A stretch of DNA of 64,000 nucleotides from Acidobacteriota bacterium (GTDB lineage Bacteria > Acidobacteriota > UBA890 > WLXD01). The notes beneath the pieces were generated by a model. It was not told the DNA's origin and ran no database searches. It saw nothing but the letters and a program-made list of their open reading frames with translations. Location of the stretch: contig CBDFKD010000002.1 in assembly GCA_965248695.1 (NCBI GenBank), forward strand, positions 2,976,001 through 3,040,000, written 5' to 3'. Positions 2,862-36,864 of the stretch are shown piece by piece (position 1 is the stretch's first letter; each line of letters begins with the position of its first letter). The position numbers were made by a program, and so were the translations under genes.

Positions 2862-3134
2862 CTATTCCGACGTGCCGGGACCACCCTTGCGGGTCGCCAA
2901 CTCCGCCAGGACGTTCTCGAGGTCGGGGAAGCCGGCGCCGAACAGCGGACGCGTGATCGCGTTGCCACCGCGCGAGGCGATGACGTTGTCGTCCGCCAGC
3001 ACATCGAACTGGCCCGTCTTGCCGGGTTCGACGGCCGCGTCGAGACCCAGCCGCTGCTTGATGAGGGCGACGAGACTCGCCGCCTTGCTCTCGGAGCGCC
3101 GTCAGGTGGCGCAGGAACGGATTTCGATCTTCAT
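2862..3134 (-). CDS. Rdx (SelW/SelT/SelH-like) selenoprotein, CxxU motif; absent from the ORF track
   Basis: MKIEIRSCAT-U(TGA 3104-3102)-RRSESKAASL...GKTGQFDVLADD..IASR...GFPD; GAGGTG RBS; directly follows the upstream gene; SECIS-like hairpin 3066-3084. Confidence 0.85.
3066..3084 (-). promoter_or_regulatory. Putative bacterial SECIS hairpin (Rdx gene)
   Basis: GGCGGCGA-GTC-TCGTCGCC; loop starts with G, 25 nt after the UGA. Confidence 0.6.
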
Positions 3135-3136
3135 GG

Positions 3137-3982
3137 TCACCTCAGGATGCGTTGATCGCTAAGATCCTTGCCACCCACCGCGGTGGATATCCGAGCGCCG
3201 CGGAACTCGTTGATCTCGAGATCGGCGAACGCGTTGACGATGTTGTACTGCGTCGGCATGTCCTCCCAGCGCGCCCGGTGGAACTGCAACGTCCCGTCGC
3301 CGAGCCAGGCCTGCTCGGGCACTTCGTCCGAGTTACCCGCCGGCGACAGAACCGCGTACTGCACGTCGGCGATCCCCCACTCGCCCGTCTTCGGGATGTA
3401 CTTGTAGTGCAGCGTCCCTCGCAGCTCGCCGTCCGACGGGTCGGGTGGATCGGCGCTGTCGGTCGGGACCGGCAGCTCCTGCAGGTCCTTGACACTCATG
3501 TCGAGGAACTTGAAGCCCATCCAGCTGGCGGTGACGTGAGTTTCGCCCTCGAACACCCGTGGCTCCGGTAGGTCGGCGTAGATCTTCGAGAAGCCGAGCT
3601 CATCGCGTCCGGTAAGGATGGGATCGGTGAGGTTCTCCCAGAGCACGAGCAGCAGGCTGCCGCTGGCGTGATCCTGGCGTCCATCGAACCGGGCCGGAAA
3701 ACTGACTCCGAGGATGTTGTATCCGCGTCCCGCCAGCCACGGAATCTCGGTGATATAGGTGGCGGCCACGGTCACCACCGGCTCGCCGTCGAGCGAGAAG
3801 CCTTGGGGGAGCATCGTCGCCAGCTGGGCGGCGTTGGTCAGACAGCTCACCGCGACTGTCTTCTTGCGCGGTGCGTCGATGTTGTCGAACGTCTCGCCGT
3901 TCGGCCCCCGCCGCGGACCTGTTCGGGGTCCGAAGTGCGTCGGCATGCGGTACATCGCGTCGGGCTCGAACGTGTAGCTCAT
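3137..3982 (-). CDS. Acetoacetate decarboxylase-like family protein
   Basis: YRMPTHFGP, WLAGRGYN, LWEN.TDPILTGRDELGFSK (Schiff-base Lys motif). Confidence 0.8.
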   Translation of the reverse strand: MSYTFEPDAMYRMPTHFGPRTGPRRGPNGETFDNIDAPRKKTVAVSCLTNAAQLATMLPQGFSLDGEPVVTVAATYITEIPWLAGRGYNILGVSFPARFDGRQDHASGSLLLVLWENLTDPILTGRDELGFSKIYADLPEPRVFEGETHVTASWMGFKFLDMSVKDLQELPVPTDSADPPDPSDGELRGTLHYKYIPKTGEWGIADVQYAVLSPAGNSDEVPEQAWLGDGTLQFHRARWEDMPTQYNIVNAFADLEINEFRGARISTAVGGKDLSDQRILR

Positions 3983-4225
3983 GGAAGCAGCGACCTCGAT
4001 TTTGGGGCCGGCCTCACGCTTGCCCGTAGGCTCCAGGCAGTGAAGACGAGCAGCGACACGACGACTAGCGGCCTGTTCCTTCTGGCCATGAGATCACTCC
4101 CTCGTTGGCCGCGGGCTCGGCTCGCAAGCACTTTCAGCGGCACGCTCGACAGCGACCCGTGATCTGTAACCTGTCCGAGGTGTCCGCTAAGATCAACCCC
4201 CCGCAACTTCGACGAGGAGACTCCC

Positions 4226-6376
4226 GTGGACCCTGCCGCGCCACCGCCGCGCAATGCCCGCCGGTGGCCGCTGATCGTGGCGCTGACGTCATGCGGGTGG
4301 GTTGCCACTTCACCGGATCCGGTGCGCGCTTCGCTCGCGATCATCCAGGCGCGCGTTGTCGACGACGCCGCGTTGGCCGATGAGCGGCAGGGCAGCGACT
4401 GGCTGGCGTTCGGCCGCACGTACAGCGAGCAGCGCTTCAGTCCCCTGACCCAGATCAACGCCTCCAACGTCAGCGACCTGGCGGTTGACTGGTATCTCGA
4501 TCTGCCGAACGACCGGGGTCTGGTGTCCACCCCCCTGGTGGTCGACGGAGTGCTGTACTTCAACGGCAGCCTGAACATCGTGAGAGCCGTCGACGCTGCC
4601 ACCGGTGCCCTCCTGTGGGAGTACGACCCGAAGGTCGCGGAACGCGCTTCGAGTCGCCGCGCCCGCATCGGCTGGGACCACAACCGCGGCATCGGCTTCT
4701 GGAAGGGCAAGGTCTACCTCGCCACCTGGGACGGCGTTCTCGTCGCGCTCGACGCCGCCACCGGCCGCGAGCTATGGAGCACGCCGACCGTCGACCCGGA
4801 AGACCACTACTTCATCACCGGCGCCCCGAAGATCTTCAAGGGCAAGGTGCTGGTGGGCAACGGCGGCACCGAGCTCGGCGCTTCCCGCGGCTACGTCACC
4901 GCCTACGACGCCGAGACCGGCGAGCAGGCCTGGCGCTTTTGGATCGTCCCCGGCAACCCCGCCGACGGGTTCGAGAACGAGGCCATGCGGATGGCCGCCG
5001 AGACCTGGACCGGCGAGTGGTGGAAGTACGGCGGCGGTGGCAACGCCTGGCACGGCTTCACCTACGACCACGAGCTCAACGCGCTCTACATCGGTACCGG
5101 CAACGGCTCGCCCTGGAACCAGAAGATCCGCAGCCCGGGGGGCGGCGACAACCTGTTCCTGTCATCCATCGTCGCCCTCGACCCCGACAGCGGCGAATAC
5201 CTCTGGCACTACCAGACGAACCCCGGCGAGACCTGGGATTACAACTCCAACATGGACATCGTCCTGGCCGATCTGACGATCGACGGGCGCGACGTGAAGG
5301 CGATCCTACACGCCCCCAAGAATGGCTTCTTTTATGTGATCGATCGCGCCGCCGGGAAGCTGATCTCCGCCGAGCCGTTCACCGAGGTCACCTGGGCGAC
5401 GGGGATCGACCTCGACACCGGACGACCGATCGAGGTCCCCGGCGCGCGCTTCGAGGAGCGGCCGGCGCGCATCGCGCCGACCGCGAACGGAGCGCACAGC
5501 TGGCACGCCATGTCGTACAACCCGATGACCGGGCTGGCCTACCTTCCCGTCATCCACCAGGCGAACACGTACAGCGACGAGGGCATCGACCTGGACAACT
5601 GGCGCTCTCCACAACGACAGGAGTTCAGCACCGGGGTCTCGACCCTGGGCAGCGGACCGTCCCGCGCGGACGGCGTCCGCGGCTCGCTACAGGCCTGGGA
5701 CCCCGTACGTCAGCAGCTCGCCTGGGAGATTCCGCTGCACGGCTACTGGAACCCGGGAACCATGACGACAGCGGGGAGCCTCGTCTTTCAGGGGCGCGTC
5801 GACGGCGGCTTCGCAGCCTACGACGCGGTCAGCGGCGACGAGCTGTGGACATTCGACCTGGGTCTTGGCATTTCCGCGCCGCCGATTACGTACGCGATCG
5901 ACGGCCGCCAGTATGTCGCGCTGCTCATCGGCTGGGGCGGATCACTGGCCGCGTTCGGTGGCGAGTTCGGAGCGTCGCACGGATGGGCATACGGTGCCCA
6001 AACGCGACGCCTGGTAGTGTTCTCCCTCGACGGTGAGGCGGACCTTCCGGCGCAGCCACCGCGCGAGATCCCGGAGCCGATCAGCTCCGCCGATTTCAAG
6101 GTAGACGCCTCGCTAGCGCAGCAGGGCGCCAGCATCTATCGGATGTGCGTCTACTGTCACGGCGGAGGCGCTCTCTCCTCGGGCATGGCGCCCGACCTGA
6201 GGGCCTCGCGCATCGTGCTTTCGGACATCGCGTTCGCCACCGTCGTCCGCGACGGCTCGCGGCTGCCGCGCGGGATGCCGGTTTACCTCGAGTTCTCCGA
6301 TGCCGAGCTCTTGGCGCTGCAGCACTACATCCGACGGCAGGCCGAGCAGGCATTCGCCAGCGACGGATCGAGATAG
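4226..6376 (+). CDS. PQQ-dependent quinohemoprotein (type II) alcohol dehydrogenase, paralog 1
   Basis: Signal peptide; RFSPLTQIN, W-motif beta-propeller repeats, GTGNGSPW, PGETWDY; C-terminal heme c CVYCH. Confidence 0.92.
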   Translation: MDPAAPPPRNARRWPLIVALTSCGWVATSPDPVRASLAIIQARVVDDAALADERQGSDWLAFGRTYSEQRFSPLTQINASNVSDLAVDWYLDLPNDRGLVSTPLVVDGVLYFNGSLNIVRAVDAATGALLWEYDPKVAERASSRRARIGWDHNRGIGFWKGKVYLATWDGVLVALDAATGRELWSTPTVDPEDHYFITGAPKIFKGKVLVGNGGTELGASRGYVTAYDAETGEQAWRFWIVPGNPADGFENEAMRMAAETWTGEWWKYGGGGNAWHGFTYDHELNALYIGTGNGSPWNQKIRSPGGGDNLFLSSIVALDPDSGEYLWHYQTNPGETWDYNSNMDIVLADLTIDGRDVKAILHAPKNGFFYVIDRAAGKLISAEPFTEVTWATGIDLDTGRPIEVPGARFEERPARIAPTANGAHSWHAMSYNPMTGLAYLPVIHQANTYSDEGIDLDNWRSPQRQEFSTGVSTLGSGPSRADGVRGSLQAWDPVRQQLAWEIPLHGYWNPGTMTTAGSLVFQGRVDGGFAAYDAVSGDELWTFDLGLGISAPPITYAIDGRQYVALLIGWGGSLAAFGGEFGASHGWAYGAQTRRLVVFSLDGEADLPAQPPREIPEPISSADFKVDASLAQQGASIYRMCVYCHGGGALSSGMAPDLRASRIVLSDIAFATVVRDGSRLPRGMPVYLEFSDAELLALQHYIRRQAEQAFASDGSR

Positions 6377-8106
6377 TGGTCCGGGCCCTGCTACTCGGCA
6401 GCTTGGCTTTGTTCGCCGTCTTTTCTGCTGGGTGCGCCGACGGTAGCGATGAGAGCTTCGACATTGTCATCGAAAACGGAATGGTGGTGGATGGAACCGG
6501 GAATCCCCGGTTTCGCGCCGACATCGGGATCCGTGGCGGCTCCATCGTCGCGGTTGGGGATCTCGGCTCCGTAACCGCCGAAAAGACCATCGACGCCGAG
6601 GGTCTCGTGGTTTCTCCCGGGTTCATCGATATACATGCTCACCCGGAGCGAGGGTTCGAGGAGCCGGGTTCAAGCGCCAATCTCAACTATCTGCTCCAGG
6701 GTGTGACCACGGTCGTCACCGGAAACGATGGTGGGGGTACCTTCCGGGTTGCCGAGACCAAGACGAACTGGGAATCACTCGGCATCGGAACCAACGCCGC
6801 CCATCTGGTCGGATTCGGAGCCCTCCGCGAGGAAGTCATGGGAGTGGAGACGCGGGCGCCCACGTCGGATGAGCTGGCGCGAATGCAGGCGCTCGCACGA
6901 CAGGCGATGCAGGAGGGCGCCTGGGGAATGAGCTCGGGCCTGGAGTACGTGCCCGGCCGCTATGCCAGTACCGAAGAGCTCATCGCGGTGGCCGGAGTCG
7001 TCGGCGAGCTCGGTGGGGTCTACTCGAGCCATCAGCGCAACGAGTTCGACGGTGTGCTGGAGGCCACCCAAGAGACCATCAGAATCGCCGACGAAGCGGG
7101 GGTGCGCGGCAACTCGACTCATCTGAAGATTGCGCGAAAGAACAACTGGGGCGTGATGTCCGAGGTCATCGAGCTTATCAACGAGGCGCGGGCTCGAGGC
7201 GTGGACGTCGGCGCCGACCTGTACCCGTATCACTTCGCATCGGGAGGGCCGATTCTCCCGATCGCGAGAAACGGTGGCTGGGCTCCGTTTCATCTCCCGA
7301 GCGACATGGAGCCGTTTGTCGAGCTGAGACAGGCCCTCAGCGACCGGAGCCTGCCGGACTCCGAGAGACAGGAGCTGAGGGATCGTTACGTCGATGAGCT
7401 GGCGATGGCGCTGTCCGATGTCTCGAAGCGGGAACAGATCAGGGAATCGGTCTTGATCGGCACCCCGGAAAGTCCGAGTTCAGTGGCTCTGGCGGGCTGG
7501 GATAGCTATCTGGTCGTCGTGGCCGACAAGAACGCGGATCTGGTCGGACGGATCCTCTCGGACATTGCCGCGGAGCAAACCCGCGATCCCTTCGACGTCG
7601 CCGCGGATCTCGTCATCGATGAGCCTGACCTGTACGTTGCATGTGGGGTCATGTCGGAAGACGACATGCGCCTCGCAATGCAGCAGGATTGGCTGATGTT
7701 CTCCAGTGACGGAGGCGCGTTGCCCATCGTGCGGGAGTCTGACGCGCCGCGCATCAGTCATCCTCGCTCTTTCGGCAGTCAGGCCAGAGTACTCGGCAGG
7801 TACGTGAGGGAACAGGAGGTCTTGACGCTCGAGAACGCCATCAGAAAGATGAGCTCCCTTCCCGCCGAGTTCCTCCAAATGAAGGATCGAGGCCTGCTCA
7901 TGAGCGGATACCGCGCGGATATCGCCGTGTTCGATCCGGACACCATCAGAGAAAACGCCACTCATGCAAACGCTCGCCAGTACAGCAGCGGGATGCACTC
8001 CGTCCTAGTGAATGGGCAGCTCGCGATCGACAACGGCGAGTTCACCGGTGGACTCTACGGAAGGGTGCTGACGCCCCGTTTGGAGCGCATGTCGCAGGCG
8101 CCTTAG
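6376..8106 (+). CDS. N-acyl-D-amino acid deacylase / amidohydrolase family lipoprotein
   Basis: GTG overlapping the upstream stop; lipobox FSAGC; VDGTG, PGFIDIHAH, HPRSFG, ADIAVFD. Confidence 0.88.
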   Translation: MVRALLLGSLALFAVFSAGCADGSDESFDIVIENGMVVDGTGNPRFRADIGIRGGSIVAVGDLGSVTAEKTIDAEGLVVSPGFIDIHAHPERGFEEPGSSANLNYLLQGVTTVVTGNDGGGTFRVAETKTNWESLGIGTNAAHLVGFGALREEVMGVETRAPTSDELARMQALARQAMQEGAWGMSSGLEYVPGRYASTEELIAVAGVVGELGGVYSSHQRNEFDGVLEATQETIRIADEAGVRGNSTHLKIARKNNWGVMSEVIELINEARARGVDVGADLYPYHFASGGPILPIARNGGWAPFHLPSDMEPFVELRQALSDRSLPDSERQELRDRYVDELAMALSDVSKREQIRESVLIGTPESPSSVALAGWDSYLVVVADKNADLVGRILSDIAAEQTRDPFDVAADLVIDEPDLYVACGVMSEDDMRLAMQQDWLMFSSDGGALPIVRESDAPRISHPRSFGSQARVLGRYVREQEVLTLENAIRKMSSLPAEFLQMKDRGLLMSGYRADIAVFDPDTIRENATHANARQYSSGMHSVLVNGQLAIDNGEFTGGLYGRVLTPRLERMSQAP

Positions 8107-8222
8107 GCGATCGTCCGCCGATCGCTTGAACCGCGCGCCTCCGTTGCCCGCGCCAGTGCGCATCGCTAGAGTCGTGCCAGCTCGCATCTCGCACGACAAC
8201 ACGAAAAACGGAGGCTCGTCCA

Positions 8223-10346
8223 TTGAACGGTCGTTGGTCACTGACTCGGGGACTCGGCTGCTCGCTGCTGCTCGCGACCATGGTGCTGTCGCCTGAAGCG
8301 GCGTGGACCATCGGCGCCTCGCAAACGCCCACCGTGGTGGACGACGCGGCGATGGCCAACGAAACGCAGGGCGACAACTGGCTGGCGTTCGGCCGCACCT
8401 ACAGCGAGCAGCGTTTCAGCCCGCTCACCCAGATCAACTCGCTCAACGTCGCCGACCTGTCGGTCGACTGGTACCTGGATCTGCCGACCGACCGCGGGCT
8501 GACCTCCACCCCGCTCGTCGTCGACGGCATTCTGTACTTCATCGGCAGCATGAACGTCGTGCGCGCGGTCGACGGTGCTACCGGCAGGATGCTCTGGGAG
8601 TACGACCCCGACATCGTCGGCAACGCCGCCCACCGCATGCGGTCCGGGTGGGATCACAACCGCGGAATCGCCTTCTGGAAAGGCAAGGTCTACGTCGCTA
8701 CCTGGGACGGTCGACTCAACGCCGTCGACGCCGCCACCGGCGAGGAGCTGTGGAGCGTGATGACGGTCGATCCGTCCGCGCACTACTACATCACGGGGGC
8801 GCCGAAGGTCTTCAAGGGCAAGGTACTGATCGGCAACGGCGGTGCCGATCGCGGCGCCTCGCGCGGCTACGTCACCGCCTACGACGCCGAGACCGGCGAG
8901 CAGGCCTGGCGCTTCTGGATCGTCCCCGGCAACCCAGCCGACGGCTTCGAGAACGACGCCATGCGGATGGCCGCCGAGACCTGGACCGGAGAGTGGTGGA
9001 AGCTCGGGGGCGGCGGCAATTCCTGGCACGGCTTCACCTACGACGCCGAGCTCGATGCGCTGTACATCGGCACCGGTAACGGCGCGCCCTGGAACCAGAA
9101 GCTCCGCAGTCCCGGCGGCGGCGACAACTTGTTCCTGTGCTCGATCGTCGCCCTCGATCCCGACACCGGCGAGTACCTCTGGCATTACCAGACCACGCCG
9201 GGTGAGACCTGGGACTACAACTCCAACATGGACATCGTGCTCGCCGACCTCGAGATCGACGGACGCGAGGTCAAGGCGCTTCTCCACGCCCCCAAGAACG
9301 GCTTCTTTTACGTCATCGATCGGGAAACCGGAAAGCTACTCTCGGCGGAGCCGTACGCCGAAGTGAGCTGGGCCACGGAGATCGATCTGCAGACCGGGCG
9401 CCCGGTCGAGGTTCCCGGCGCCCGCTACGGGGACCGGCCGGCCCGGATCACCCCCTCGTACGCCGGCGCCCACAACTGGCAAGCGATGTCCTACAACCCG
9501 CTCACGGGGTTGACGTACATCCCCGCCATCCACCTGACGATGATGTTCAGCGACGAGGGCATCGATCTCGAGAGCTGGCAGCCCGGCCCGCGTCAGGGCG
9601 CCGGGGTGCGGGCGACCAGCGTCGGATCGCCGCGGTCGGACGGAGCCTCCGGTTCGTTGCTCGCATGGGATCCCGTACGCCAGCAGCTTGCCTGGGAGGT
9701 TCCGCTGACCGGCCTATGGAACGCCGGCACGATGACGAGTGCCGGCAACTTGGTGTTCCAGGGTCGCACCGACGGAGCCTTCGCCGCCCACAGCGCCCAG
9801 ACCGGCGAGACGCTGTGGACCTTCGACATGGGCTCCGGGATCTCGGCGCCCCCGATCACCTACATGATCGACGGGCGCCAGTACGTGGCCCTCCTGGTCG
9901 GCTGGGGTGGCGTGTGGACAGGGATCGGCGGAGCCGAGGCGGCGGCGCCCGGATGGGCGTACGGCGTTCATCCGCGGCGTCTTGTGGCGTTCTCGCTCGA
10001 CGGCGACACTGAGCTGCCGCCCTCGCCGCCACCCATGGTTCCGGTGCCGCTGCATGCCCCCGACTTCGTCGTCGATGAAGCCCTGGCTCAGCAAGGCGCC
10101 AGGGAGTTCGGCGTCGGCTGCGGCGGCTGCCACGGTGGGCTGGTCGCGGGAGGTCAGGCGCCCGACCTGAGGGCGTCGCTCGTGGTGCTGTCAGACGTTG
10201 CGTTCGCGACGGTCGTCCGCGACGGCTCCCGCCTGGCTCGCGGGATGCCGGCCTATCCCGAGCTCACCGAACAGCAGCTCCTGGCGATGCGTCACTTCAT
10301 CCGCGCTGTGGCGGAGCGCGACGCGACAGAATCAAGCGCCCGATAG
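8223..10346 (+). CDS. PQQ-dependent quinohemoprotein (type II) alcohol dehydrogenase, paralog 2
   Basis: GGAGG RBS; very similar to 4226..6376; heme c CGGCH. Confidence 0.92.
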   Translation: MNGRWSLTRGLGCSLLLATMVLSPEAAWTIGASQTPTVVDDAAMANETQGDNWLAFGRTYSEQRFSPLTQINSLNVADLSVDWYLDLPTDRGLTSTPLVVDGILYFIGSMNVVRAVDGATGRMLWEYDPDIVGNAAHRMRSGWDHNRGIAFWKGKVYVATWDGRLNAVDAATGEELWSVMTVDPSAHYYITGAPKVFKGKVLIGNGGADRGASRGYVTAYDAETGEQAWRFWIVPGNPADGFENDAMRMAAETWTGEWWKLGGGGNSWHGFTYDAELDALYIGTGNGAPWNQKLRSPGGGDNLFLCSIVALDPDTGEYLWHYQTTPGETWDYNSNMDIVLADLEIDGREVKALLHAPKNGFFYVIDRETGKLLSAEPYAEVSWATEIDLQTGRPVEVPGARYGDRPARITPSYAGAHNWQAMSYNPLTGLTYIPAIHLTMMFSDEGIDLESWQPGPRQGAGVRATSVGSPRSDGASGSLLAWDPVRQQLAWEVPLTGLWNAGTMTSAGNLVFQGRTDGAFAAHSAQTGETLWTFDMGSGISAPPITYMIDGRQYVALLVGWGGVWTGIGGAEAAAPGWAYGVHPRRLVAFSLDGDTELPPSPPPMVPVPLHAPDFVVDEALAQQGAREFGVGCGGCHGGLVAGGQAPDLRASLVVLSDVAFATVVRDGSRLARGMPAYPELTEQQLLAMRHFIRAVAERDATESSAR

Positions 10347-10406: not shown

Positions 10407-10805
10407 TTGATCCTGCCGGACTCCTCGGTGTGGATCGACTACTTCAACGGCATCGACTGCCCCGAGACCGACCGCCTGCACGAGCTGTTGGCCGCGGAGC
10501 TCGTGGTGGTCGGGGACCTGATCCTGCTGGAGATCCTGCAGGGCTTCCGCACCGATGGCGGCTGCCGGACTGCCCGGGGTTGGCTCGTTCAGATACCGTT
10601 CGCAGAGCTCGGCGGACGCCAGGTGGCGCTGGCCGCGGCCGGCAACTACCGCCGCCTGCGCCGCAAGGGCGTCACGGTGCACAAGACCATCGACGTCGTC
10701 ATCGCGACGTACTGCATCCTGAACCGGCACCCGCTCCTGTACACGGACCGTGACTTCGATCCCATGGTCGACCACCTGGGTCTGACATCGGCGCTGGCAC
10801 AGTGA
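10407..10805 (+). CDS. vapC: PIN-domain (VapC-like) ribonuclease
   Basis: ILPDSSVWIDYF, EILQG, KTIDVVIA, DRDF PIN acidic motifs. Confidence 0.88.
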   Translation: MILPDSSVWIDYFNGIDCPETDRLHELLAAELVVVGDLILLEILQGFRTDGGCRTARGWLVQIPFAELGGRQVALAAAGNYRRLRRKGVTVHKTIDVVIATYCILNRHPLLYTDRDFDPMVDHLGLTSALAQ

Positions 10806-13417: not shown

Positions 13418-13831
13418 TCAGGACAACGCCACATGCGGACGCACACTATCGACCGTCGTCCGCGCGGCCGTCCTCGCGCGCTCGGCGTCGGCACGATCGT
13501 AGAAGCCCGTCGGTGTCAGGTCTTCGGCACCGTAGAAGGCGATCTCACGGTCACGGCGCAGGTCCTTGGAGATCGCGGTGAGCTCGTCGAGCCGATCCCG
13601 GACCGGCTGTGGCAATCGATCCTGCTCGGCGATCAGCACGCCGGAAACGTCGTGGATCCGTGGCGGCACCACGCCGTGGGCCCGCAGCAAGCCCTTCAAA
13701 GCGAGCTCGACGATCTCCTGCGACTCGCGCACCACGTCCGCCCAGCTGCCTGCTTCGAACAGGACGTCGAGGGCGCGCAGCCGCACATCGGCGCGCCAGA
13801 CGTGGTCCTGTGCCAGGTTCCGGTCATGCAT
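13418..13831 (-). CDS. HEPN domain protein (toxin partner of MNT)
   Basis: VVRESQEIVELALKGLL...PPRIHDV...REIAFYG. Confidence 0.85.
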   Translation of the reverse strand: MHDRNLAQDHVWRADVRLRALDVLFEAGSWADVVRESQEIVELALKGLLRAHGVVPPRIHDVSGVLIAEQDRLPQPVRDRLDELTAISKDLRRDREIAFYGAEDLTPTGFYDRADAERARTAARTTVDSVRPHVALS

Positions 13832-13834
13832 CCA

Positions 13835-14380
13835 TCAGGCCGCCTCCATCCAATAGGGATGGCCGTCGATGAGGCGACGGATGATACGGCCTGCGGCGAT
13901 GTCGGCGCGCACACGTGCCAGGCGCCGCGACACGGCGACCTCGCGCTCGAACAAGACCAGCCCGTCAATCGCCGCCTCTGCCCAGATGCCGGCGACGACA
14001 TTGTCGGCGGGAGGCAGGCTGACGAAATGCGGCTCCACTGGCCGACCGTCCCAGGAAACGGGTTCAGCGTCCCAGCGACGATACAGCTCTCGGGTCACCT
14101 GCGCTCCTTCATCGACCACGACGAGCAAATCCACGTCTGAGTCGGCGTGCATCTGGGCGCGGGCCCACGAACCGAAGCCGATCACGCCGGCCAGAGCCTC
14201 GCCGGCGACGCTCGCGGCGCGCGTGACGGCTGCCAGCGCACCGGCATCTGCCATCGACCCGGAGGGCGAGGCGAGCTTGCGTGCGCAGTACTCGTTCAAC
14301 GACAGCCCGGCACCGTCGGCCGCCCGTCGAAGCGCTGTGTGGAGCGCGGGTTCGATGCGCAGGAGGAATCGACCCGACAT
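13835..14380 (-). CDS. HicB-like RHH domain fused to a minimal nucleotidyltransferase (MNT) antitoxin
   Basis: SGRFLLRIEPALH...GLSLNEYC (HicB-like) then FGSWAR...SDVDLLVV (GS-x-DxD). Confidence 0.85.
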   Translation of the reverse strand: MSGRFLLRIEPALHTALRRAADGAGLSLNEYCARKLASPSGSMADAGALAAVTRAASVAGEALAGVIGFGSWARAQMHADSDVDLLVVVDEGAQVTRELYRRWDAEPVSWDGRPVEPHFVSLPPADNVVAGIWAEAAIDGLVLFEREVAVSRRLARVRADIAAGRIIRRLIDGHPYWMEAA

Positions 14381-14382
14381 GG

Positions 14383-14436
14383 TGATATCATTCATCAACA
14401 GTTAATGATATCAGTTCGACATCTATACTGATATCA
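14383..14436. promoter_or_regulatory. Three TGATATCA palindromes at 23-bp period; putative autoregulatory operator
   Basis: TGATATCA at 14383, 14406 and 14429 in an AT-rich patch just upstream of the HicB-MNT ATG. Confidence 0.75.
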
Positions 14437-19762: not shown

Positions 19763-19840
19763 CAGCGGGAGACGCCCGGCGAGATGCGGACGCTACCGGG
19801 CGGTCCTTTTCGCCCGGATCGACTATAAGATGTCGGCAGC

Positions 19841-21067
19841 ATGAAGAGCACCTGGCGACGAAGTACCACGATAGCCCTTGGCGCCCTCGCAGGGCTGGCT
19901 GCCTGCTCCAATCAGGAGACCGGGGTGCCGGAGCAGACGAACCCGTCGCCGCAGACCCCCGCGGTGCAGGCGGCGCACGACGCAGTCAGCAACCCCGACG
20001 ATACGTACGTCGACGAGCTCGGGATGGAGTTCGGGATACCCATCAACCATCCTGCCATCGTCCACCCGGGCTCCGACGACTTTCCCAGCGGTCCGGCGGT
20101 GGGCGAGCGACTCCCCGACTTCACGCTGCCGAACCAGCACGGGGAAATGATCGATTTCCAGCAACACCACGCGGGCCAGAAGGCGGTTGTTGTCTTCTAT
20201 CGATCCGCCGTCTGGTGACCCTACTGCATGACGCAGCTGGTCGAGCTGCAGAAGAAGATCGGCGAGTTCGAAGCTGCTGGCATCCGCGTGTACGGCGTCA
20301 GCTACGACCCGCAGTCGGAGCTCGAGGCCTTCTCGGACCGCTACGGGATCACCTATGACCTGCTTTCGGACGTCGATTCGGCGGTTATCCGGCGGTTCGG
20401 GATTCTCAACACACTCGTCGACCCGGACGACCCTCGCGCCAGCGACCTGTATGGGATTCCGTTTCCGGGCACCTATGTAGCCGACGCATCCGGCGTCGTC
20501 ACCGAGAAGTTCTTCAACCGCCACTACGCGACCCGCGACTCGGCTGGGACGATCCTCGACAAGGCGCTCGGCGAGGTCCTGCTTCACGAGGAGGCACCGC
20601 AAACTGATCAGCAAGATGAGCGCGTCCGCATCACCGCCTTCCTCTCGGATACGGATCTGAAACTCGAGGTCACCAACACGCTCTACGTCCGTCTCGAGCT
20701 GGCGGCGAACCACCACGTCTACGCCGAGCCCCTTCCCCAGGGTTTCTACCCGACCACGGTCGACGTGCAACCGGCCCGTGGCCTCAGGGTCGGCGACGCG
20801 ATCTACCCGCCAACCAGACCGAGAGAGTTCGAGATCCTCGGCGTGACGCTCAACGTCTACGAGGATGCCGCCGAGATCGCTGTTCCAATCACCGCGACGA
20901 CACTGCTGTGGGACGATTCGGAAACCCTCGAGGCCGATAGCACCCTGCCGCTCGAGCTGGATATCGTGGTCGACTACCAGGTCTGCAGTGAGACCATCTG
21001 CTACCGGCCGGAGACGGCGCGACTGCAGATCGAGGTACCGATCGCGGCATTGGAAGAGCCGCAGTGA
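19841..21067 (+). CDS. Lipoprotein selenoprotein: AhpC/TSA-like redoxin (UPYC) fused to a DsbD-N-like domain
   Basis: ORFs 19841..20218 and 20228..21067 share a frame; FYRSAVW-U(TGA 20216-20218)-PYCMTQLVELQ; lipobox LAAC; C-terminal HVY...VCSETICY. Confidence 0.88.
20233..20249 (+). promoter_or_regulatory. Putative bacterial SECIS hairpin
   Basis: GCAGCT-GGTCG-AGCTGC, loop 20 nt after the UGA. Confidence 0.65.
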
Positions 21068-21352
21068 TCCGCGGGTCGTAGGCACTGCCCCATCGCCGGA
21101 AAACGTCGCCACGGCCATCACGAATTGACCGGGCGGTCGGCTTCCGCGCGGCGACCGAGCCGACACCGCACCGTCAAGAATCCGAGCTGCGCTGAGTCCG
21201 CATCCCCGGACTGGTATGGTGCCTCCTTCTGCCGCCCTGTGAGCCCGCTATGAGCTCCAGGCTGCAGAACGAGAGGAGCTAATGGGCAACGAAAGAGCGC
21301 GTCACGAAGGGGATCGACACCTGCTCGCGAGCGGCCAGCATCGAGAACCGTC

Positions 21353-23530
21353 GTGAGTGGGCGCGGCCCTCGGATCGTCATGGCGTGCGGTCTTCTGGCG
21401 ACCTTCGCGACCGGCACTGCGGCAGTGCCGGCCTTGCAGAACCCTCAACAGGTGTTCGACCGCGCGGTCGAGGACTTCCGCGCCGGACGGCTACACGATG
21501 CCGCGACGGCGTTCGACCGCCTGGTCGAGCTCGCCCCGGGCTCCGCTGCGCATCTGTGGCAGCGCGGCATCGCTCTCTACTACGTCGGTCGCTACCAGGA
21601 CTGCCGTGAGCAGTTCGAAGCACACCGCACAGTCAATCCGAACGACGTCGAGAACGCTGCCTGGCACTTCCTGTGCGTTGCCCGCGCCGAGTCTCCGGCG
21701 GCGGCGGGCGCCGCGCTGTTGCCGGTGGGGCCGGACGCGCGCGCACCGATGGCGGAGATCTATCGCATGTTCCGCGGCGAGCTGGCGGCCGATGAGCTAT
21801 TGACCGCGGCCGGCGCCGGGGTATCGGCGCAGTTCTACGCCCACCTCTACCTTGGCCTCTATCACGAGGCTTGGGGACGCGACGAGGCCGCGCTACGACA
21901 CATCCAAACCGCCGCCGACAATCGATACGCCGACGTAGGTGGGTACATGCACATGGTGGCACGGGTGCACTTGGGCGCTCAGCGAACTGACTACGGCGAC
22001 CTCCTGGATCTCTTCGAGGGTTGGCGAGCGTTCGAGAGACCGACCTTCACCGACGGCGTGCCGGACTACTCCCGCGCTGCGATGGCAACACAGGCAGACG
22101 CGCTGCCGGCCTACCGCGCCCGGCTCGAGGCGATCGAGATCGACTCATGGCCGATCGCCCAGCAGATCGACTGGCACCTGGTGCGCGCCGAGATGAACGG
22201 GCTCGACTTCGATCATCGCGTACGGCGACCGTGGGCCAACAATCCTGCCTTCTACGTGATGCTGTTCCCGGCCGAGTCGGACGTGCCTGCCCACGAGGGC
22301 CCGGTCATCCACGGCTGGATCGATACCTGGACGTACGACTACCCGCTATCGCCCGCCGACGCCGCCGCGCTGACCGAGCGCGTGGCGGCGATCCCGCCGC
22401 TGCTGGAGCAGGCGCGCGGCAATCTGGTGGGCGATGGACACGATCTGTGGCGCATGAGCGTGGGCTCGATACGTGGCCAGAGTGCCAACCTCGCCAGCTT
22501 CGGGGAACGAGTAGCCGGCACGAGCGCCGCACTCGACCGCGCGGTCCAGGAGGCCATCGTCGCCAGCGATCGCTTCGCTGGGTGGCTCGAGCTTCAGTTA
22601 CCTTCCAAGACCGGGGTGTCGGGCGTCGGAAAAGACAACTACAGCTGGTATCTGCAGAACGTCCACCTTGTTCCCTACACCTGGGAGCAGCAGCTCACGC
22701 TGATGCGCCGCGAGCTCTGGCGCGCCCATGCGTCGCTTCGGCTCGAAGAGAACCGCAACCGCCACCTGCCGCGGCTGAGCCGCTACCAGTCTGCCGTCGA
22801 GTACGACGAGGCGCTCAACACCGCGGTCACCGAGTACATGGAGTTTCTCGCGGAAGAAGAGATCCTGACGATCCGTGACTACATGGACGAGGCGCTGCGC
22901 GAGCGGATTGGTCGTTTTGCGCCCCCCTCGCGCGCCGACGGACTGCGCGGCTTTTTCGCCGAGGTCGACTACCGAGACGGCGAGGTCATGCGCACCCACG
23001 GGTATCACTGGTTCGACCTCGCCCGCATGCGACTCGAGCCGCACGAGAGCCCGATTCGGCGCGTTCCTGCCCTGTTCAACATCTATGACGCGCGCTCCGA
23101 GGGCATGGCCACCGGCATCGAGGAGATGATGATGCACGCCGGCGCCTTCGACGATAAGCCGCGCGCCCGTGAGCTGATCTGGATCTTGCTGGCACAACGC
23201 GCTGCACGCGCTATCGGCGGTCTCATGCAGCACGGTCGGGAATGGTCGCTACAGGAGGCCGCCGAGTTCGCCTCCGAGTGGGTGCCGCGCGGCTGGCTAC
23301 CGTCCGACGGGGCGACGATCCAGTTCGAGGAGCACTTCTACCTTACGCAGCCCGGCTACGGCACGAGCTATGTCATGGGCAAGATCGAGATCGAGCAGCT
23401 TCTTGCCGAGCGCGCCATCCAGCTTGGCGACGAGTTCAGCCTCAAGCGATTCATGGACGAGTTTTCCGCCGTCGGAGTGATCCCGGTATCCATGGTTCGC
23501 TGGGAGCTCACCGGTCGCAGCGAAGAGTAG
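21353..23530 (+). CDS. TPR domain fused to a DUF885-family (metallopeptidase-like) domain
   Basis: N-terminal LWQRGIALYY/NDVENAAW TPR block; C-terminal RSEG.A.G.EE, YL.QPGYGTSY..GK, F.LK.F.D.F...G.IP. Confidence 0.75.
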   Translation: MSGRGPRIVMACGLLATFATGTAAVPALQNPQQVFDRAVEDFRAGRLHDAATAFDRLVELAPGSAAHLWQRGIALYYVGRYQDCREQFEAHRTVNPNDVENAAWHFLCVARAESPAAAGAALLPVGPDARAPMAEIYRMFRGELAADELLTAAGAGVSAQFYAHLYLGLYHEAWGRDEAALRHIQTAADNRYADVGGYMHMVARVHLGAQRTDYGDLLDLFEGWRAFERPTFTDGVPDYSRAAMATQADALPAYRARLEAIEIDSWPIAQQIDWHLVRAEMNGLDFDHRVRRPWANNPAFYVMLFPAESDVPAHEGPVIHGWIDTWTYDYPLSPADAAALTERVAAIPPLLEQARGNLVGDGHDLWRMSVGSIRGQSANLASFGERVAGTSAALDRAVQEAIVASDRFAGWLELQLPSKTGVSGVGKDNYSWYLQNVHLVPYTWEQQLTLMRRELWRAHASLRLEENRNRHLPRLSRYQSAVEYDEALNTAVTEYMEFLAEEEILTIRDYMDEALRERIGRFAPPSRADGLRGFFAEVDYRDGEVMRTHGYHWFDLARMRLEPHESPIRRVPALFNIYDARSEGMATGIEEMMMHAGAFDDKPRARELIWILLAQRAARAIGGLMQHGREWSLQEAAEFASEWVPRGWLPSDGATIQFEEHFYLTQPGYGTSYVMGKIEIEQLLAERAIQLGDEFSLKRFMDEFSAVGVIPVSMVRWELTGRSEE

Positions 23531-23543
23531 GACGAGGGCTGAG

Positions 23544-25160
23544 ATGCTCGATGTCGGCGACGCGTACCCTCCCTTCGAGCTACAGCGTGCCGATGGGGAG
23601 GCGTGGAGCTCCACCCCGGAAACCGTGGCCGGCCCGGTGCTGCTCGCGATCCTGGAGACCGACTGTCCGACGTGTCGGCTGATCGTCCCTTACCTATCGC
23701 GCCTCGACGAAGCGCTGTCTCCGACCCCCGGGCGAGTAGTGGCGGTGTCGCAGGACTCTTCGGCCGACACCGACGCAATGCTCAGCAGTCTCCGCTTCAG
23801 CCCGCCGGCGCTGATCGATGACCAGCTCGACGTCTCTCGAACTTTCGACCCCCCGAGCGTGCCGGCGCTGTTCGTTCTGGGAACCGATGGACGCCTCGAA
23901 TTCGCTTCCATTGGCTTCGATAAGGGCGACCTGAACCAGATCGCCGCCCGCATGATGGAGGCCTACGGGCTGGCAGTCCGGTGCATCGCCGAACCCGACG
24001 ATGGGGCACCGGAGAGCAAGCCCGGCTGTGCATCGCGGCACGTGGAGCCCCCCGACGATGCCGCGATGCCACGCGCGGCGCCGATCGACCTGCACCCGCA
24101 GGAGGGAACACGGGCGACCAGGCTGACACTCGACGAGGATATCGACCTCTACGAGTACTGCATGGACGCCGGGTTCTCGCCGTGCCTGCCGGTGGTCCCT
24201 CCCACTGCGGCGCGCGTCGATCGCACCCTCGCGGCGACCCCCTTGCCCGCCGACCGGGTGATCGGCCTGGTACCTCCGTGCTACGGCGAGGCTACCGTCG
24301 AGAAGATCGCCGCCAACGCCGTGATGGCCGGCTGCAAGCCCGAGTACATGGAACTGCTGGTGCCGCTGATACGAGCCGCTTGCGACGAGCGCTTCAACCT
24401 CCATGGCGTGCAGGCCACTACCCACTCCGCCACACCGTTGGCGATCGTCAGTGGCCCGGCCGTCGATCGCCTCGGACTGACCTGCGGCGCCGGGCTGTTC
24501 GGAAACACGGCGCGCGCCAACAGCACCATCGGTAGGGCGTTCCAGCTCGTGATCACGAATCTCGGCGGCGCGCTACCGGGCGAGATCGACATGTCGACGT
24601 TGGGGAATCCCGGCAAGTTCTCCTATTGCATCGCCGAGAACCGTGCGGCGAGCCCCTGGGAGCCGCTGCATGTCGAGGACGGATTCGGTGCTAACGACAG
24701 CACGGTCACGCTGTTCGGGGCGGCCGGCATCCAGGAGGTCAGCGACCATACCGCTCGTTCCGGCGCGCAGCTCTTGCGAACGATCGCCGCGACGCTCGCC
24801 GTGGTCTGGAGCTGGCGTGTCTGTGGGCGCGTCGACGCGTTGCTGGTGATGTCGCCGGAGCATGCGGCGACAATGGCGGCGGATGGATTCACCAAGACCG
24901 ACATACGCGATTTCCTGTTCGACAACACCGGTGTGCCGTTGCGGGCGTTCGATCACGACGGCACCGAGGGGTCTCAACTTCGCGACAGGTACGATGAGAT
25001 CCGCATCGATGGGGAGCCGCACTATCGCAAGTTCAGCGACCCGAGCCAGATTCGCATTGTCGTCGCCGGCGGCACAGCAGGTAAATTCTCCGCGGTGATC
25101 GGCGGTTGGCCATCCGGTCCCGGCGGTACCCAGATCGTCACCTACCCGGTCGCGTGGTGA
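23544..25160 (+). CDS. Redoxin (CPTC) domain fused to the uncharacterised domain that accompanies UGSC proteins
   Basis: ETDCPTC; LPVVPPT..RV, ATVEKIAANAVMAGCKPEY, ATTH, RANSTIGRA, GNPGK, IVVAGG. Confidence 0.75.
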   Translation: MLDVGDAYPPFELQRADGEAWSSTPETVAGPVLLAILETDCPTCRLIVPYLSRLDEALSPTPGRVVAVSQDSSADTDAMLSSLRFSPPALIDDQLDVSRTFDPPSVPALFVLGTDGRLEFASIGFDKGDLNQIAARMMEAYGLAVRCIAEPDDGAPESKPGCASRHVEPPDDAAMPRAAPIDLHPQEGTRATRLTLDEDIDLYEYCMDAGFSPCLPVVPPTAARVDRTLAATPLPADRVIGLVPPCYGEATVEKIAANAVMAGCKPEYMELLVPLIRAACDERFNLHGVQATTHSATPLAIVSGPAVDRLGLTCGAGLFGNTARANSTIGRAFQLVITNLGGALPGEIDMSTLGNPGKFSYCIAENRAASPWEPLHVEDGFGANDSTVTLFGAAGIQEVSDHTARSGAQLLRTIAATLAVVWSWRVCGRVDALLVMSPEHAATMAADGFTKTDIRDFLFDNTGVPLRAFDHDGTEGSQLRDRYDEIRIDGEPHYRKFSDPSQIRIVVAGGTAGKFSAVIGGWPSGPGGTQIVTYPVAW

Positions 25161-25194
25161 AAGCAACCGCCGGCCACTTCACAGGAGCCCGGTC

Positions 25195-25734
25195 ATGCCA
25201 GAGATCTTGGTAAACCCGCTCGACGAAGCCGCCCAGGCACCACAGCCGGCGGCCCCTCGGCTCGACGAGCTCGAAGGCAAGACGATCGGACTGCTCGACA
25301 TCAGCAAACCCGGCGGCAGCGTGCTGCTGGACAGGTTGGAGGAGCTGTTGCGCGAGCACCATGGGGTAACAAGCTTCGTGCGGGAGGTGAAGCCGACGTA
25401 CACGAAGCCCGCCCCCGACAGTGTGCTGCAGCGGCTCGGTCTCGCCGACGGCGTCATCGAGGCGCTGGCCGACTGAGGATCGTGCACAACGTGCAGTTTG
25501 CACGACTCCGTCAGCCTCGAGAATCGCGGCATTCCCACCGTTCCGATCGCCACCGACGAGTTCCGCACTGCCGCACGAATCCAGGCGAACCGACTCGGGC
25601 GTCCGGATCTCGATGCAGTCTACGTTTCGCATCCCATCCAGGATCAGACCGAGGCCGAGATCCAGGCGCGGGCGGAAGCAGCCATCGGACAGATCGTCGA
25701 CCGACTCACCACCGCCGCCGGCAACGAGACCTGA
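25195..25734 (+). CDS. UGSC-family selenoprotein
   Basis: ORFs 25195..25476 and 25498..25734 share a frame; IEALAD-U(TGA 25474-25476)-GSCTTCSLHD...ENRGIPT...HP. Confidence 0.9.
25490..25504 (+). promoter_or_regulatory. Putative bacterial SECIS hairpin
   Basis: CGTGCA-GTT-TGCACG, loop 19 nt after the UGA. Confidence 0.65.
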
Positions 25735-29975: not shown

Positions 29976-29986
29976 TGGAGCGTTCG

Positions 29987-35133: not shown

Positions 35134-35256
35134 TGGCCCAGCCCCCGTAAAGGCTGACGAGCGCAAGTACCGGCCCGAGTATTGACGCTCCGAAACCATG
35201 TGCGAACATGGCGCCCACCGATCTGGTCTTCCGAAACCAAATGCAGGTGAACGCTC

Positions 35257-35628
35257 ATGACAATGGACGCCGCGACCGAGTTCGCTGATCTCGCAGCTGC
35301 TGACCCGAACATCCAGGCTCAACTAGACGCGGTGTCCTCGACGGACGCCGGAGAGCGCGTCGACGCGCTCGTCGGCGTCGGCGCGCAGGCGGGCTACGAC
35401 TTCACTTCCGAGGACTACTACAACTCGGGCTCAATACGCGCCGCGGAGGTGAATGAGGCCTGGCCGGTCGAGACGGCGCAACAGGCGGCGCCGGTGGCGT
35501 CGCCGTTGCAGCCTTACGCGCAGTATGGCTCCCCGTACAGCGCCTTCCCGCCCATACCGCCACCGATGCCGACATATTTGCCGCCGCCGCCCTACATACC
35601 ACACAAGGAACCTGGCGAAGGGGCGTAG
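35257..35628 (+). CDS. Nif11-like leader peptide protein with Pro/Tyr-rich C-terminus
   Basis: F..AAADPNIQAQL...LV..GAQAGYDFTSED matches the Nif11 leader pattern. Confidence 0.65.
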   Translation: MTMDAATEFADLAAADPNIQAQLDAVSSTDAGERVDALVGVGAQAGYDFTSEDYYNSGSIRAAEVNEAWPVETAQQAAPVASPLQPYAQYGSPYSAFPPIPPPMPTYLPPPPYIPHKEPGEGA

Positions 35629-35691
35629 ACGCCCTGCCGACACGCAATTCACCGCCCTCTACCGTGTGGCGACCTCCGGCGCGGTACCACC

Positions 35692-36864
35692 TTAACGATC
35701 GGGCAGGTTCAGCGGCCGGTAGTAAGGCTGGTCGCCGAGCTCCTCGAACTTCGCCACCCAGTTGGCACCCGCGTCGTCCGGGGTAAACGACCAGTCCTGG
35801 CGGTGATAGTTCCAACTGTTGGGATTCAAGGTCTGGGCCACCTCCCAGTAGGAATTCGCGAGCTCGGCGTCGCCGGCGAGATGGAAATGCGCCGCGAGTC
35901 GGAAATTGGCGTCGGCAAGGGCCTCGTCGGACGTTCGGGCGCGAATGTCGGGGGCAAGCTCGTCGGGGCCCAGCGCGTAGACGCTCGCGCTGCCGTTCTC
36001 GACCCAGTCGCGAACCGCCGGCAGGTAATCGTCGGTGCCGAACGAGAGATCTCCGAAGGCGTACTCGCGCGTGTAGGCGCCCTCGTCATGGCGCACGATA
36101 ACGCCCTGCTCGTCGATCAGCACCGCTGTCGGCACGTTGACCATGTTGTACAGGGCGCTGACCGTGTGGCGTGGGTCGATGAGGGCCGTGAACTTCGCGT
36201 CGGCAGCATCGTAGAACTCACCCGCCGCGGCCTCGCCACCGGTGTCCTGGGCGACAGCCACGATCTCGAGGTTCTGGTCCGCGAGCTCCTCGTAGAGAGC
36301 CTGCCAACCTGGCAGGTCGAGGCGGCAGCCTCACCACGAGGCCCACGTGAGCAGCAGCACTTTCTTGCCGCGAAAGTCCGAGAGACGTACAACGTCGCCG
36401 TTCCGATCCGGGAGCGCGAAATCGGGCGCCAGTGCGTGGTCAACGAGGTCCGCTTGCAGGATCGGGATCTCGCTGAAGCTCCAGGTGTGGTGAGCACGAT
36501 CCACGACATAGGCTTGGTGGAGCTTGCGCGCAAAGGCGGTGAGGCTGAACCACCGCTGCCCGTCGCGGGTGACAACGATATCGCTGTCGTCGGTCTGGTT
36601 GACGGGGATGCAGAGTGTGTCGAGACAAGCGCCCTCGGGCTTGAGCTCGAAGCCGTTGACCCGAGTCAGATCCGCTGGCGTCACCCAGAGATCGGACGGA
36701 TCCGCGAGCGTCTGCTCGACGGTCACCACGTGACCGGCGTGGAGGACGGTGGTCGGCACCTGCTCGGTGGTTGCGCATGCCGGGGTCATGGCTGTCGCTC
36801 CGACCAATAGAGTGGCCGGCATCAGGTGTGATCGCATCGTGCGCATCCCTTGCTGTCGGGTCAT
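35692..36864 (-). CDS. TlpA/AhpC-like redoxin selenoprotein with UGC motif (start may be 36837)
   Basis: ORFs 36331..36864 and 35692..36261 share a frame; APDFALPD..G...LSDFRGKKVLLLTWASW-U(TGA 36333-36331)-GCRLDLPGWQ. Confidence 0.88.
36300..36316 (-). promoter_or_regulatory. Putative bacterial SECIS hairpin
   Basis: CCTGCCA-GGT-TGGCAGG, loop 21 nt after the UGA. Confidence 0.7.

Follow-up and report, generated by a model that had tools for sequence, protein, structure and literature searches.

Selenocysteine (Sec) insertion of the type described for fdhF and fdnG of Escherichia coli depends on a UGA codon followed by a short hairpin, the selenocysteine insertion sequence (SECIS), within the open reading frame (ORF). 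The bacterial SECIS model given in a 2026 review (PMC13188914, Fig. 2 legend and section 5) describes a loop of 3-9 nucleotides (nt), a stem of 4-16 base pairs (bp), a spacing of 16-37 nt, a minimum free energy (MFE) of -7.5 kcal/mol or lower, and, within the first two loop positions, a G that is most often succeeded by G or U. Families abundant in ocean metagenomes (PMC2398784, Table 2) include SelW-like CxxU proteins (427 Sec versus 56 Cys forms), UGSC-containing UxxC proteins, 'Prx-like 1' UxxC proteins (pfam00578) as well as Prx-like proteins that contain UGC, and the same four types appear in the family table of the review (PMC13188914). Here we describe a stretch of 64,000 nt (64 kb, hereafter the window) from an Acidobacteriota bacterium (assembly GCA_965248695.1, contig CBDFKD010000002.1, positions 2,976,001 to 3,040,000), which carries four genes with an in-frame TGA and matches to these families. 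We conclude that all four are very probably genuine selenoprotein genes, in which UGA at the redox-active Cys position is read as selenocysteine.

Four reading frames with an internal UGA

The four codons lie at 3104 (-), 20216 (+), 25474 (+) and 36333 (-), minus-strand coordinates being those of the codon's first base as read, in the contexts C-A-T-U, W-U-P-Y-C, D-U-G-S-C and W-U-G-C. An earlier note on this stretch, made from the letters alone, had named these positions and contexts, and translation and a composition check bear them out exactly. Each frame is otherwise open and has coding-like composition on both sides of the TGA, in a window of 64-67% G+C throughout. Read as U, the codon yields four uninterrupted proteins of 90, 408, 179 and 390 amino acids, and single Pfam or NCBIfam domains run across the UGA in all four genes, which we number 1 to 4 in the order of the window. 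Their predicted features are as follows.

2862..3134, minus strand: gene 1, SelW-like (Rdx-fold) selenoprotein; 90 codons plus TAG, C8-A-T-U11, MKIEIRSCATU... (translation)
3102..3104, minus strand: Sec codon UGA of gene 1 (translation)
3066..3084, minus strand: SECIS-like hairpin of gene 1; 8-bp stem, GUC loop starting 25 nt past the UGA
19841..21067, plus strand: gene 2, peroxiredoxin (Prx)-like (AhpC/TSA) and DsbD_N-like fusion selenoprotein; 408 codons plus TGA, W-U126-P-Y-C, ...FYRSAVWUPYCMTQLVELQ...
20216..20218, plus strand: Sec codon UGA of gene 2 (translation, conservation across loci)
20233..20249, plus strand: SECIS hairpin of gene 2, GCAGCU/GGUCG/AGCUGC; loop starts 20 nt past the UGA, -10.4 kcal/mol
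25195..25734, plus strand: gene 3, UGSC-family selenoprotein; 179 codons plus TGA, D-U94-G-S-C, ...ALADUGSCTTC...
25474..25476, plus strand: Sec codon UGA of gene 3 (translation)
25490..25504, plus strand: SECIS-like hairpin of gene 3, CGUGCA/GUU/UGCACG; loop starts 19 nt past the UGA, -7.4 kcal/mol
35692..36864, minus strand: gene 4, ResA/TlpA-like thiol:disulfide oxidoreductase selenoprotein (WAxxUGC); 390 codons plus TAA, W-A-S-W-U178-G-C, ...LLTWASWUGCRLD...
36331..36333, minus strand: Sec codon UGA of gene 4 (translation)
36300..36316, minus strand: SECIS-like hairpin of gene 4, CCUGCCA/GGU/UGGCAGG; loop starts 21 nt past the UGA, -11.5 kcal/mol

In genes 2 and 3 a further TGA serves as the true stop, giving one codon two meanings within a gene, and 21 other gene models in the window terminate with TGA. 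The four sites had been described as unlinked. This holds for sites 1 and 4, but not for sites 2 and 3, which lie 5 kb apart inside one co-directional plus-strand run from 18536 to 25734 (genes 18536-19762, 19841-21067, 21353-23530, 23544-25160 and 25195-25734), with gaps of 13 and 34 nt among its last three genes.

For Sec insertion, the SelB mechanism, cellular location and electron path we infer the following picture. By analogy with Escherichia coli, SelB-GTP-Sec-tRNA(Sec) would be brought to the ribosome by the hairpin that lies within the coding region, 19-25 nt downstream. Elsewhere UGA is still a common stop codon of the organism. The products would be thiol/selenol oxidoreductases: from gene 1 a small SelW-like CxxU protein of the cytoplasm, a UGSC (UxxC) protein from gene 3 paired with a partner that carries a CxxC thioredoxin-like domain, and probably exported enzymes from genes 2 and 4. 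The putative lipoprotein encoded by gene 2 has a DsbD-alpha-like two-cysteine domain that could pass reducing equivalents to its UxxC peroxiredoxin-like domain, and the product of gene 4 would be a ResA/TlpA-like protein with a UGC centre.

Codon and hairpin conservation in the peroxiredoxin-like gene

Prx-like UxxC selenoproteins ('Prx-like 1', PMC2398784; also PMC13188914) resemble gene 2 in their AhpC/TSA domain, in Sec at the first position of UxxC, in a SECIS directly downstream and in Cys homologues with CxxC. Gene 2 differs from them by an added C-terminal DsbD_N-like domain and a lipoprotein-like signal. Its Pfam scores are 105.7 bits for AhpC-TSA (PF00578, cut-off 26) and 47.5 bits for DsbD_N (PF11412, cut-off 25), the alignment places U at the first Cys position of the AhpC/TSA CxxC centre, and the N-terminus has a hydrophobic segment ending in LAAC that, read by eye, is a lipoprotein-type signal. 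The DsbD_N-like domain has two cysteines, C382 and C387, that do not vary among the 10 sequences aligned. The word 'DsbD' does not occur in the main text of PMC2398784 or PMC12013277, and its sole occurrence in PMC13188914 concerns a rhodanese/DsbD fusion-like protein.

Protein databases hold this family mostly in pieces. A word-indexed protein search gave 266 matches, 120 of them listed, and 116 of the 120 cover just the 55-68% of the query that follows the UGA, typically from a Met three codons on. The window's own database entry for gene 2 is such a piece, of 279 amino acids (P0005), which bears out the earlier expectation that gene callers split or miss these genes. The four listed homologues that cover 83-93% of the query all read WCxxC at the U126 column (4/4 aligned). 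A cluster look-up of six homologues returned no useful names.

For comparison at the DNA level, one scan of a species-representative genome collection gave 80 loci. By title, 74 belong to the Acidobacteriota (Vicinamibacterales, Thermoanaerobaculia with Candidatus Multivorans among them, Holophagales and unclassified members), and the remaining six comprise two loci from Gammaproteobacteria, two from Binataceae, one from Deltaproteobacteria and one from another bacterium. The closest, an acidobacterial metagenome-assembled genome (MAG) contig (L001), encodes a Prx protein 85% identical to that of gene 2 and shares upstream synteny with the window (BCCT transporter 95%, homocysteine methyltransferase 90% identical). 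At the U column 78 of 79 loci have TGA and one (L006) has TGT, the column of L079 lying outside the fetched piece, and the coding regions before and after the TGA are conserved across loci. In this collection the Prx-DsbD_N architecture is almost always in the Sec form, and mostly acidobacterial. One locus (L073) has an additional TGT paralogue, and a Pseudohongiella MAG (L070) has two tandem Prx-DsbD_N genes, 5878-7062 and 7340-8548, both with TGA.

The 17-base hairpin sequence GCAGCUGGUCGAGCUGC is nearly invariant across these loci. The 48-nt stretch occurs in 51 distinct versions, and in these every one of the 306 stem cells is paired (100%); five pairs are invariant, and the sixth shows one compensatory change from G-C to A-U, in L069. 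Such invariance of the stem is by itself uninformative on structure; the telling evidence is that of synonymous sites. At codons +5 to +10 (T Q L V E L), one codon is used in 100, 99, 92, 97, 100 and 99% of 78 distinct sequences, whereas elsewhere in the same conserved stretch the commonest codon for Leu, Val or Thr reaches 45-74%, and the suppression of synonymous variation is confined to the codons of the hairpin. Judged from these codon frequencies, the hairpin is under selection at the RNA level, exactly where a SECIS is expected.

Two further observations concern these loci. The 48 nt after the TGA, ACGCAGCUGGUCGAGCUGCA, are nearly identical among the Acidobacteriota, Gammaproteobacteria, Binataceae and Deltaproteobacteria loci, an identity across phyla that would reflect either very strong constraint or gene transfer between phyla. 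Within 6 kb of the Prx gene, 17 of the 80 loci, mostly with Thermoanaerobaculia or Candidatus Multivorans titles, carry a tRNA-Glu(CTC) gene (L005, L011, L012, L014, L039, L041, L042, L047, L048, L053, L054, L057, L063, L064, L066, L071 and L074); this neighbourhood is conserved among them and absent from the window.

The UGSC, WAxxUGC and SelW-like genes

Gene 3 carries the exact motif of the UGSC family (D-U-G-S-C, residues 93-97) and scores above both curated cut-offs (PF24696, 167.7 bits versus 25; NF041046, 149.7 versus 125). A plasmid tblastn search with its product found 13 records, of which 10 were fetched and compared. Three of the 10 have TGA at the UGSC column, two from Paracoccus (identical over the stretch) and one from Acidovorax, and their genes are annotated as split, truncated or absent; six have TGC or TGT, and for the last (L085) no alignment was obtained at this column. 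The Paracoccus and Acidovorax genes have an 8-bp hairpin whose 3-nt GUG loop starts 19 nt past the UGA. Gene 3 shares with these proteobacterial Sec forms the 19-nt spacing and the 3-nt G-U-N loop and differs from them in a stem of 6 bp, with one stem position swapped (C-G here, G-C there). None of the six Cys forms has a hairpin at the 19-nt spacing.

Gene 3 begins 34 nt after a conserved partner gene, 23544-25160 (+). Residues ~190-538 of the partner are homologous to 'hypothetical protein' genes beside the plasmid UGSC genes at 8 of 10 loci (L081-L090; four with weak E-values), on plasmids of Acidovorax, Paracoccus, Variovorax, Embleya, Natrinema, Halalkalicoccus and Roseovarius. No Pfam family matched this domain; its atlas look-alikes are 'thioredoxin family' clusters without specific names, and a cluster of weaker likeness (score 0.87, no more than a lead) has UGSC in 16% of its members. 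The window's partner gene adds an N-terminal CPTC thioredoxin-like domain, an extra CxxC domain in which this neighbour differs from those beside other UGSC genes. Going by this gene order, UGSC and its partner look like a conserved two-gene redox module.

Gene 4 shares with the ResA-like WAxxUGC family (NF041054, WAxxUGC_long), or 'Prx-like (UGC-containing)' proteins, the motif, a TlpA/ResA-type thioredoxin-fold domain and the length (390 amino acids versus a model of 354 positions). It differs in matching the model in two stretches, the best of them model positions 6-205, and in scoring 280.5 bits, under the equivalog cut-off of 300, and we therefore file it as a close relative of NF041054 and not as a certified equivalog. 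It also matches AhpC-TSA (74.3 bits), Redoxin (54.7) and the ResA model PRK03147 (79.7, below that model's own cut-off of 170), and its N-terminus is hydrophobic. We examined the 150 best-matching cluster representatives (50% identity), and 37 of them break off precisely after ...WAxx, with the U column next. A further 41 span the column with Cys (25 WAxxCGC and 16 WAxxCxxC), one reads WAxxWGC, and 71 lack the motif and are mostly post-U fragments, judging by their match coordinates. A plasmid tblastn search with this protein found 105 records, with only distant Cys-type TlpA/ResA genes and none covering 80% of the query.

Gene 1 agrees with bacterial SelW-like/Rdx selenoproteins in its length of ~90 amino acids and in a CxxU in the loop after the first strand. 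By profile alone its Rdx/SelW membership is weakly indicated (Pfam Rdx, PF10262, E 4e-4 and 21.0 bits versus a cut-off of 22.6, with C scored for U; NF041051, 16.9 bits versus 88). Since the Rdx match is below threshold, we predicted the fold from a 12-sequence alignment (predicted local distance difference test, 69.7, moderate) and compared it with known structures. The ten best PDB chains are bacterial SelW-related proteins (2fa8, 3dex, 2obk, 2p0g, 2ojl) with template modelling (TM) scores of 0.57-0.81, and mouse SelW (2npb) ranks below them. The translation and the predicted model place CxxU after strand 1 of a thioredoxin-like Rdx fold, strand-helix-strand-strand-strand-helix as in 2fa8, 3dex, 2obk and 2p0g, and at the level of a model the comparison confirms the SelW-like fold. 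Gene 1 is set apart from the family by its divergent sequence (the 21.0 versus 22.6 bits above) and its apparent coupling to a decarboxylase-family gene: it starts 2 nt past the TGA stop of an acetoacetate-decarboxylase-family gene (3137-3982, -), a spacing that suggests translational coupling.

Of 18 database relatives of gene 1, 17 are 76 amino acids or shorter, and 10 of the 11 that were aligned begin past the U column. As in the family at large, Sec forms exceed Cys forms among the relatives; no Cys form appears among the 18 (11 aligned), and plasmid tblastn with this protein gave no match. Homologues with Cys at the UGA column, a check that the earlier note had proposed, are thus found for the Prx, WAxxUGC and UGSC genes, while none was recovered for the SelW-like gene. 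The sole aligned relative of gene 1 that spans the column carries Arg there.

The hairpins themselves were described earlier as having stems of 6-8 bp and loops GUC, GGUCG, GUU and GGU that start 19-25 nt after the UGA, and each of these details is correct. The hairpin of gene 1, GGCGGCGA/GUC/UCGUCGCC, has an energy of -13.0 kcal/mol, and all four show the geometry of the bacterial SECIS model, with energies at sites 1 to 4 of -13.0, -10.4, -7.4 and -11.5 kcal/mol, that of the UGSC gene being borderline. As a control we took 3728 in-frame positions of 33 window genes and looked for a perfect stem of at least 4 bp, a loop of 3-10 nt with G in its first two positions and a spacing of 16-37 nt. 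Energies of -7.4, -10.4, -11.5 and -13.0 kcal/mol are reached at 18.2, 6.5, 4.7 and 2.9% of these positions, the first figure belonging to the UGSC hairpin, weakest of the four, and the last two to those of genes 4 and 1. At such frequencies each hairpin is singly weak evidence. Jointly the four give a Fisher combined p of 0.005, and a hairpin reaching -7.4 kcal/mol follows 4 of 4 Sec-candidate TGAs versus 5 of 21 ordinary TGA stops (one-sided p = 0.01).

Whether the hairpins are shared, as the earlier note had put it, depends on the sense of the word. They have in common the generic features of bacterial SECIS elements, with the loop starting in G then G or U and the 16-37 nt distance of the Escherichia coli-type criteria (PMC13188914), but not homology. 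A covariance model was built from the Prx-family element, since the four unrelated hairpins gave no usable alignment; it scores its own site at 63.7 bits and misses the other three at E <= 10, and we reject common descent of the four. The window elements depart from the Escherichia coli type in having no sequence similarity to each other or to the family model, and no Rfam match.

Competing readings, selenoproteome and significance

That these codons are read as Sec, the central inference of the earlier note, is strongly supported by the families themselves, by Cys at the column in homologues, by TGA in 78 of 79 Prx loci, by the constraint on the RNA and by the broken homologues in databases. 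Several observations weigh on the other side. Hairpins of this kind are frequent in coding DNA of 65% GC (18% of controls at the weakest threshold), and the bare hairpin of the UGSC gene, at -7.4, just misses the model limit of -7.5 kcal/mol. When the 65 nt that follow each UGA are folded without constraint, the described hairpin is kept in the MFE structure at one site of four, site 1 (whole-segment z-scores for sites 1-4: 0.30, -1.20, -2.99, -1.39); that of gene 4 lies outside the MFE fold. Two of the six Cys-form UGSC genes, both haloarchaeal, have a hairpin 1-2 nt off the expected position, which comes about because conserved SW...(H/Y)D residues happen to encode complementary bases; going by these sequences, the contrast between Sec and Cys forms is real but not clean. 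The hairpins of the SelW-like and WAxxUGC genes are known from this one genome, and the Pfam score of the former and the equivalog score of the latter are both slightly below curated cut-offs. Finally, selA, selB, selC and selD were not seen in the window, and one in-frame TGA of the window, treated below, is clearly not Sec.

The machinery was said in the earlier note to lie outside the window, and our searches agree: no tRNA gene or Rfam family was found in the 64 kb, and none of 50 window ORF translations matched a SelA-, SelB- or SelD-named family at E <= 1e-4. In the 12-kb flanks of the 80 Prx loci, a tRNA scan found no tRNA(Sec), only the tRNA-Glu(CTC) of 17 loci and one tRNA-Pro. Neither the SelW-like nor the WAxxUGC family is present in those 80 loci.

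Nothing in the window separates Sec from Cys insertion, and UGA might be read as Cys or another standard residue by a tRNA(Sec)-like tRNA(Cys) opal suppressor, such as certain anaerobes are described as having, or a near-cognate tRNA(Trp). A tRNA(Cys) of SelC* type, mimicking tRNA(Sec), has been described, as have suppressor-like tRNAs of unusual form from Acidobacteria (PMC5389517), and the one WAxxUGC relative with WAxxWGC would fit a Trp at this column. Yet curated models or publications treat each of the four families as selenoproteins, the SelB-type SECIS model accommodates the hairpins, and a product with mere Cys would hardly account for the strict use of TGA over TGC or TGT in 78 of 79 genomes; we regard this alternative as improbable. 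General reassignment of TGA to Trp we reject, TGA ending 21 gene models and affecting one Trp position.

That Trp position belongs to a Rieske oxygenase alpha subunit (61319-62836, -), which resembles stachydrine demethylase (4qup/3vca, E 3e-56). Its TGA at 62219-62221 (-), within CPYHA-TGA-TYD, takes the place of the invariant Trp of the CPYHxW iron-sulfur motif. The column holds Trp in 119 of 120 homologues, full-length intact relatives are up to 93% identical, and the downstream hairpin, at -6.1 kcal/mol, is weaker than all four above. We reject Sec at this codon (62221, -) on account of the Trp column; the codon reflects a nonsense change of recent date or else an error in the assembly, and an in-frame TGA alone is therefore no proof of Sec here. 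The case lends some weight to the idea that the four TGAs are themselves nonsense mutations or assembly errors in Cys codons, in pseudogenes or mis-assembled sequence, the more so as TGC or TGT becomes TGA by a single base change. Random damage would not be expected to strike four times, independently, at the catalytic Cys columns of known selenoprotein families, however. The Prx TGA is common to 78 other genomes and the UGSC TGA to plasmid genes of two proteobacterial genera, in-frame coding composition continues past each TGA and the hairpins are present, so that we consider this explanation highly improbable. Least credible is that translation truly stops at the UGAs and the downstream parts, if made, are separate proteins from internal starts: gene callers yield exactly such fragments (P0005, and the SelW-like and WAxxUGC fragments) and gene 2 has an ATG three codons past its UGA, but single domains span the UGA in all four genes, each fragment would lack half a thioredoxin fold and the active-site residue, and the Cys-form homologues are single full-length proteins.

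Single relatives (P0129, P0151) carry Arg at the U column of the SelW-like family or at the Rieske Trp column, and one WAxxUGC relative, among P0267-P0416, has Trp in place of U. Arg (CGA/AGA) and Trp (TGG) at these columns are one-base neighbours of TGA, and these exceptions hint at occasional loss of the Sec codon or at sequencing errors.

A six-frame scan of the window for further selenoproteins gave 629 in-frame TGA junctions, of which 28 passed a filter on downstream coding composition (earlier, stricter filters had missed sites 1 and 3), and it yielded no further candidate. The TGAs at 13837, 59270 and 59597 are, by Pfam, boundaries between separate genes in the same frame, and the remaining filtered junctions, judged by eye, fall in antisense or non-coding frames. 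Two further thioredoxin-fold genes of the window use cysteine, with CPTC at 23544-25160 and CPLS at 43107-45308. Other genes of the window include a HicB/nucleotidyltransferase gene followed by a same-frame HEPN-domain gene at 13418-14398 (-), a typical MNT-HEPN toxin-antitoxin pair; a separate PIN-domain gene at 10407-10805 (+); an ankyrin-repeat protein at the window edge, 2-667 (+); and two paralogous pyrroloquinoline quinone-dependent dehydrogenases, each with a C-terminal cytochrome c domain, at 4226-6376 (+) and 8223-10346 (+).

The density of the four genes led the earlier note to suggest an unusually large selenoproteome. A motif filter that recovers 4 of 4 window sites, along with two false positives, was run on 978 kb of related loci and returned 120 motif-bearing TGA junctions, mostly the Prx gene itself, including the second copy of L070. 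We submitted 16 junctions to NCBIfam, 14 of them chosen by eye from ~40 others and two being the L070 Prx copies. Only the second L070 copy and a CYCXC-family candidate in L021 look real, and the remaining submissions are same-frame neighbouring genes or had no match. The L021 candidate (1229-1966, Vicinamibacterales MAG) reads ART-U-PVC and scores 61.3 bits as a CYCXC-family (seleno)protein, below the cut-off of 90. Two further candidates in ~882 kb of flank compare with three besides Prx in 63 kb here, where the flank rate predicts ~0.14 (Poisson p = 4e-4); the flank rate is a minimum, since only a UGA with an adjoining Cys/Ser/Thr motif passes the filter.

Two readings of this density offer themselves: selenoproteins may be more numerous in this genome than in related ones, or they may be clustered locally in the window. 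The one acidobacterium in the benchmark of PMC12013277 (Table 2), Occallatibacter riparius, has three selenoprotein genes, and the largest bacterial set reported there has at least 46. We think it doubtful, though conceivable, that the lineage has a selenoproteome far above three genes, perhaps near the record of ~46 and perhaps weighted to exported thiol/selenol enzymes. If an exported-weighted selenoproteome of that size were true, it would mean heavy selenium use outside the cytoplasm in an aerobic heterotroph.

For specialists the four genes are unsurprising. A survey of ocean metagenomes had listed their family types by 2008, and with the four families known by then the window genes are new members and mainly an annotation correction. 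The practical value lies in that correction, as hundreds of database entries record these enzymes as half-proteins without an active site. A modest addition is the lipoprotein-type Prx-like/DsbD-alpha fusion that uses Sec and not Cys in 78 of 79 species-level genomes, and its element, with its extreme nucleotide conservation, shows cleanly, in a natural setting, how synonymous drift is overridden by a signal in the RNA. Our search found no literature on selenoprotein use in Vicinamibacteria, Thermoanaerobaculia or Holophagales, Thermoanaerobaculia having been checked among the best matches only. Since the genomes with the Sec form of Prx-DsbD_N (78 of 79) range across Vicinamibacteria, Thermoanaerobaculia and Holophagales, decoding of Sec must be common in these groups.

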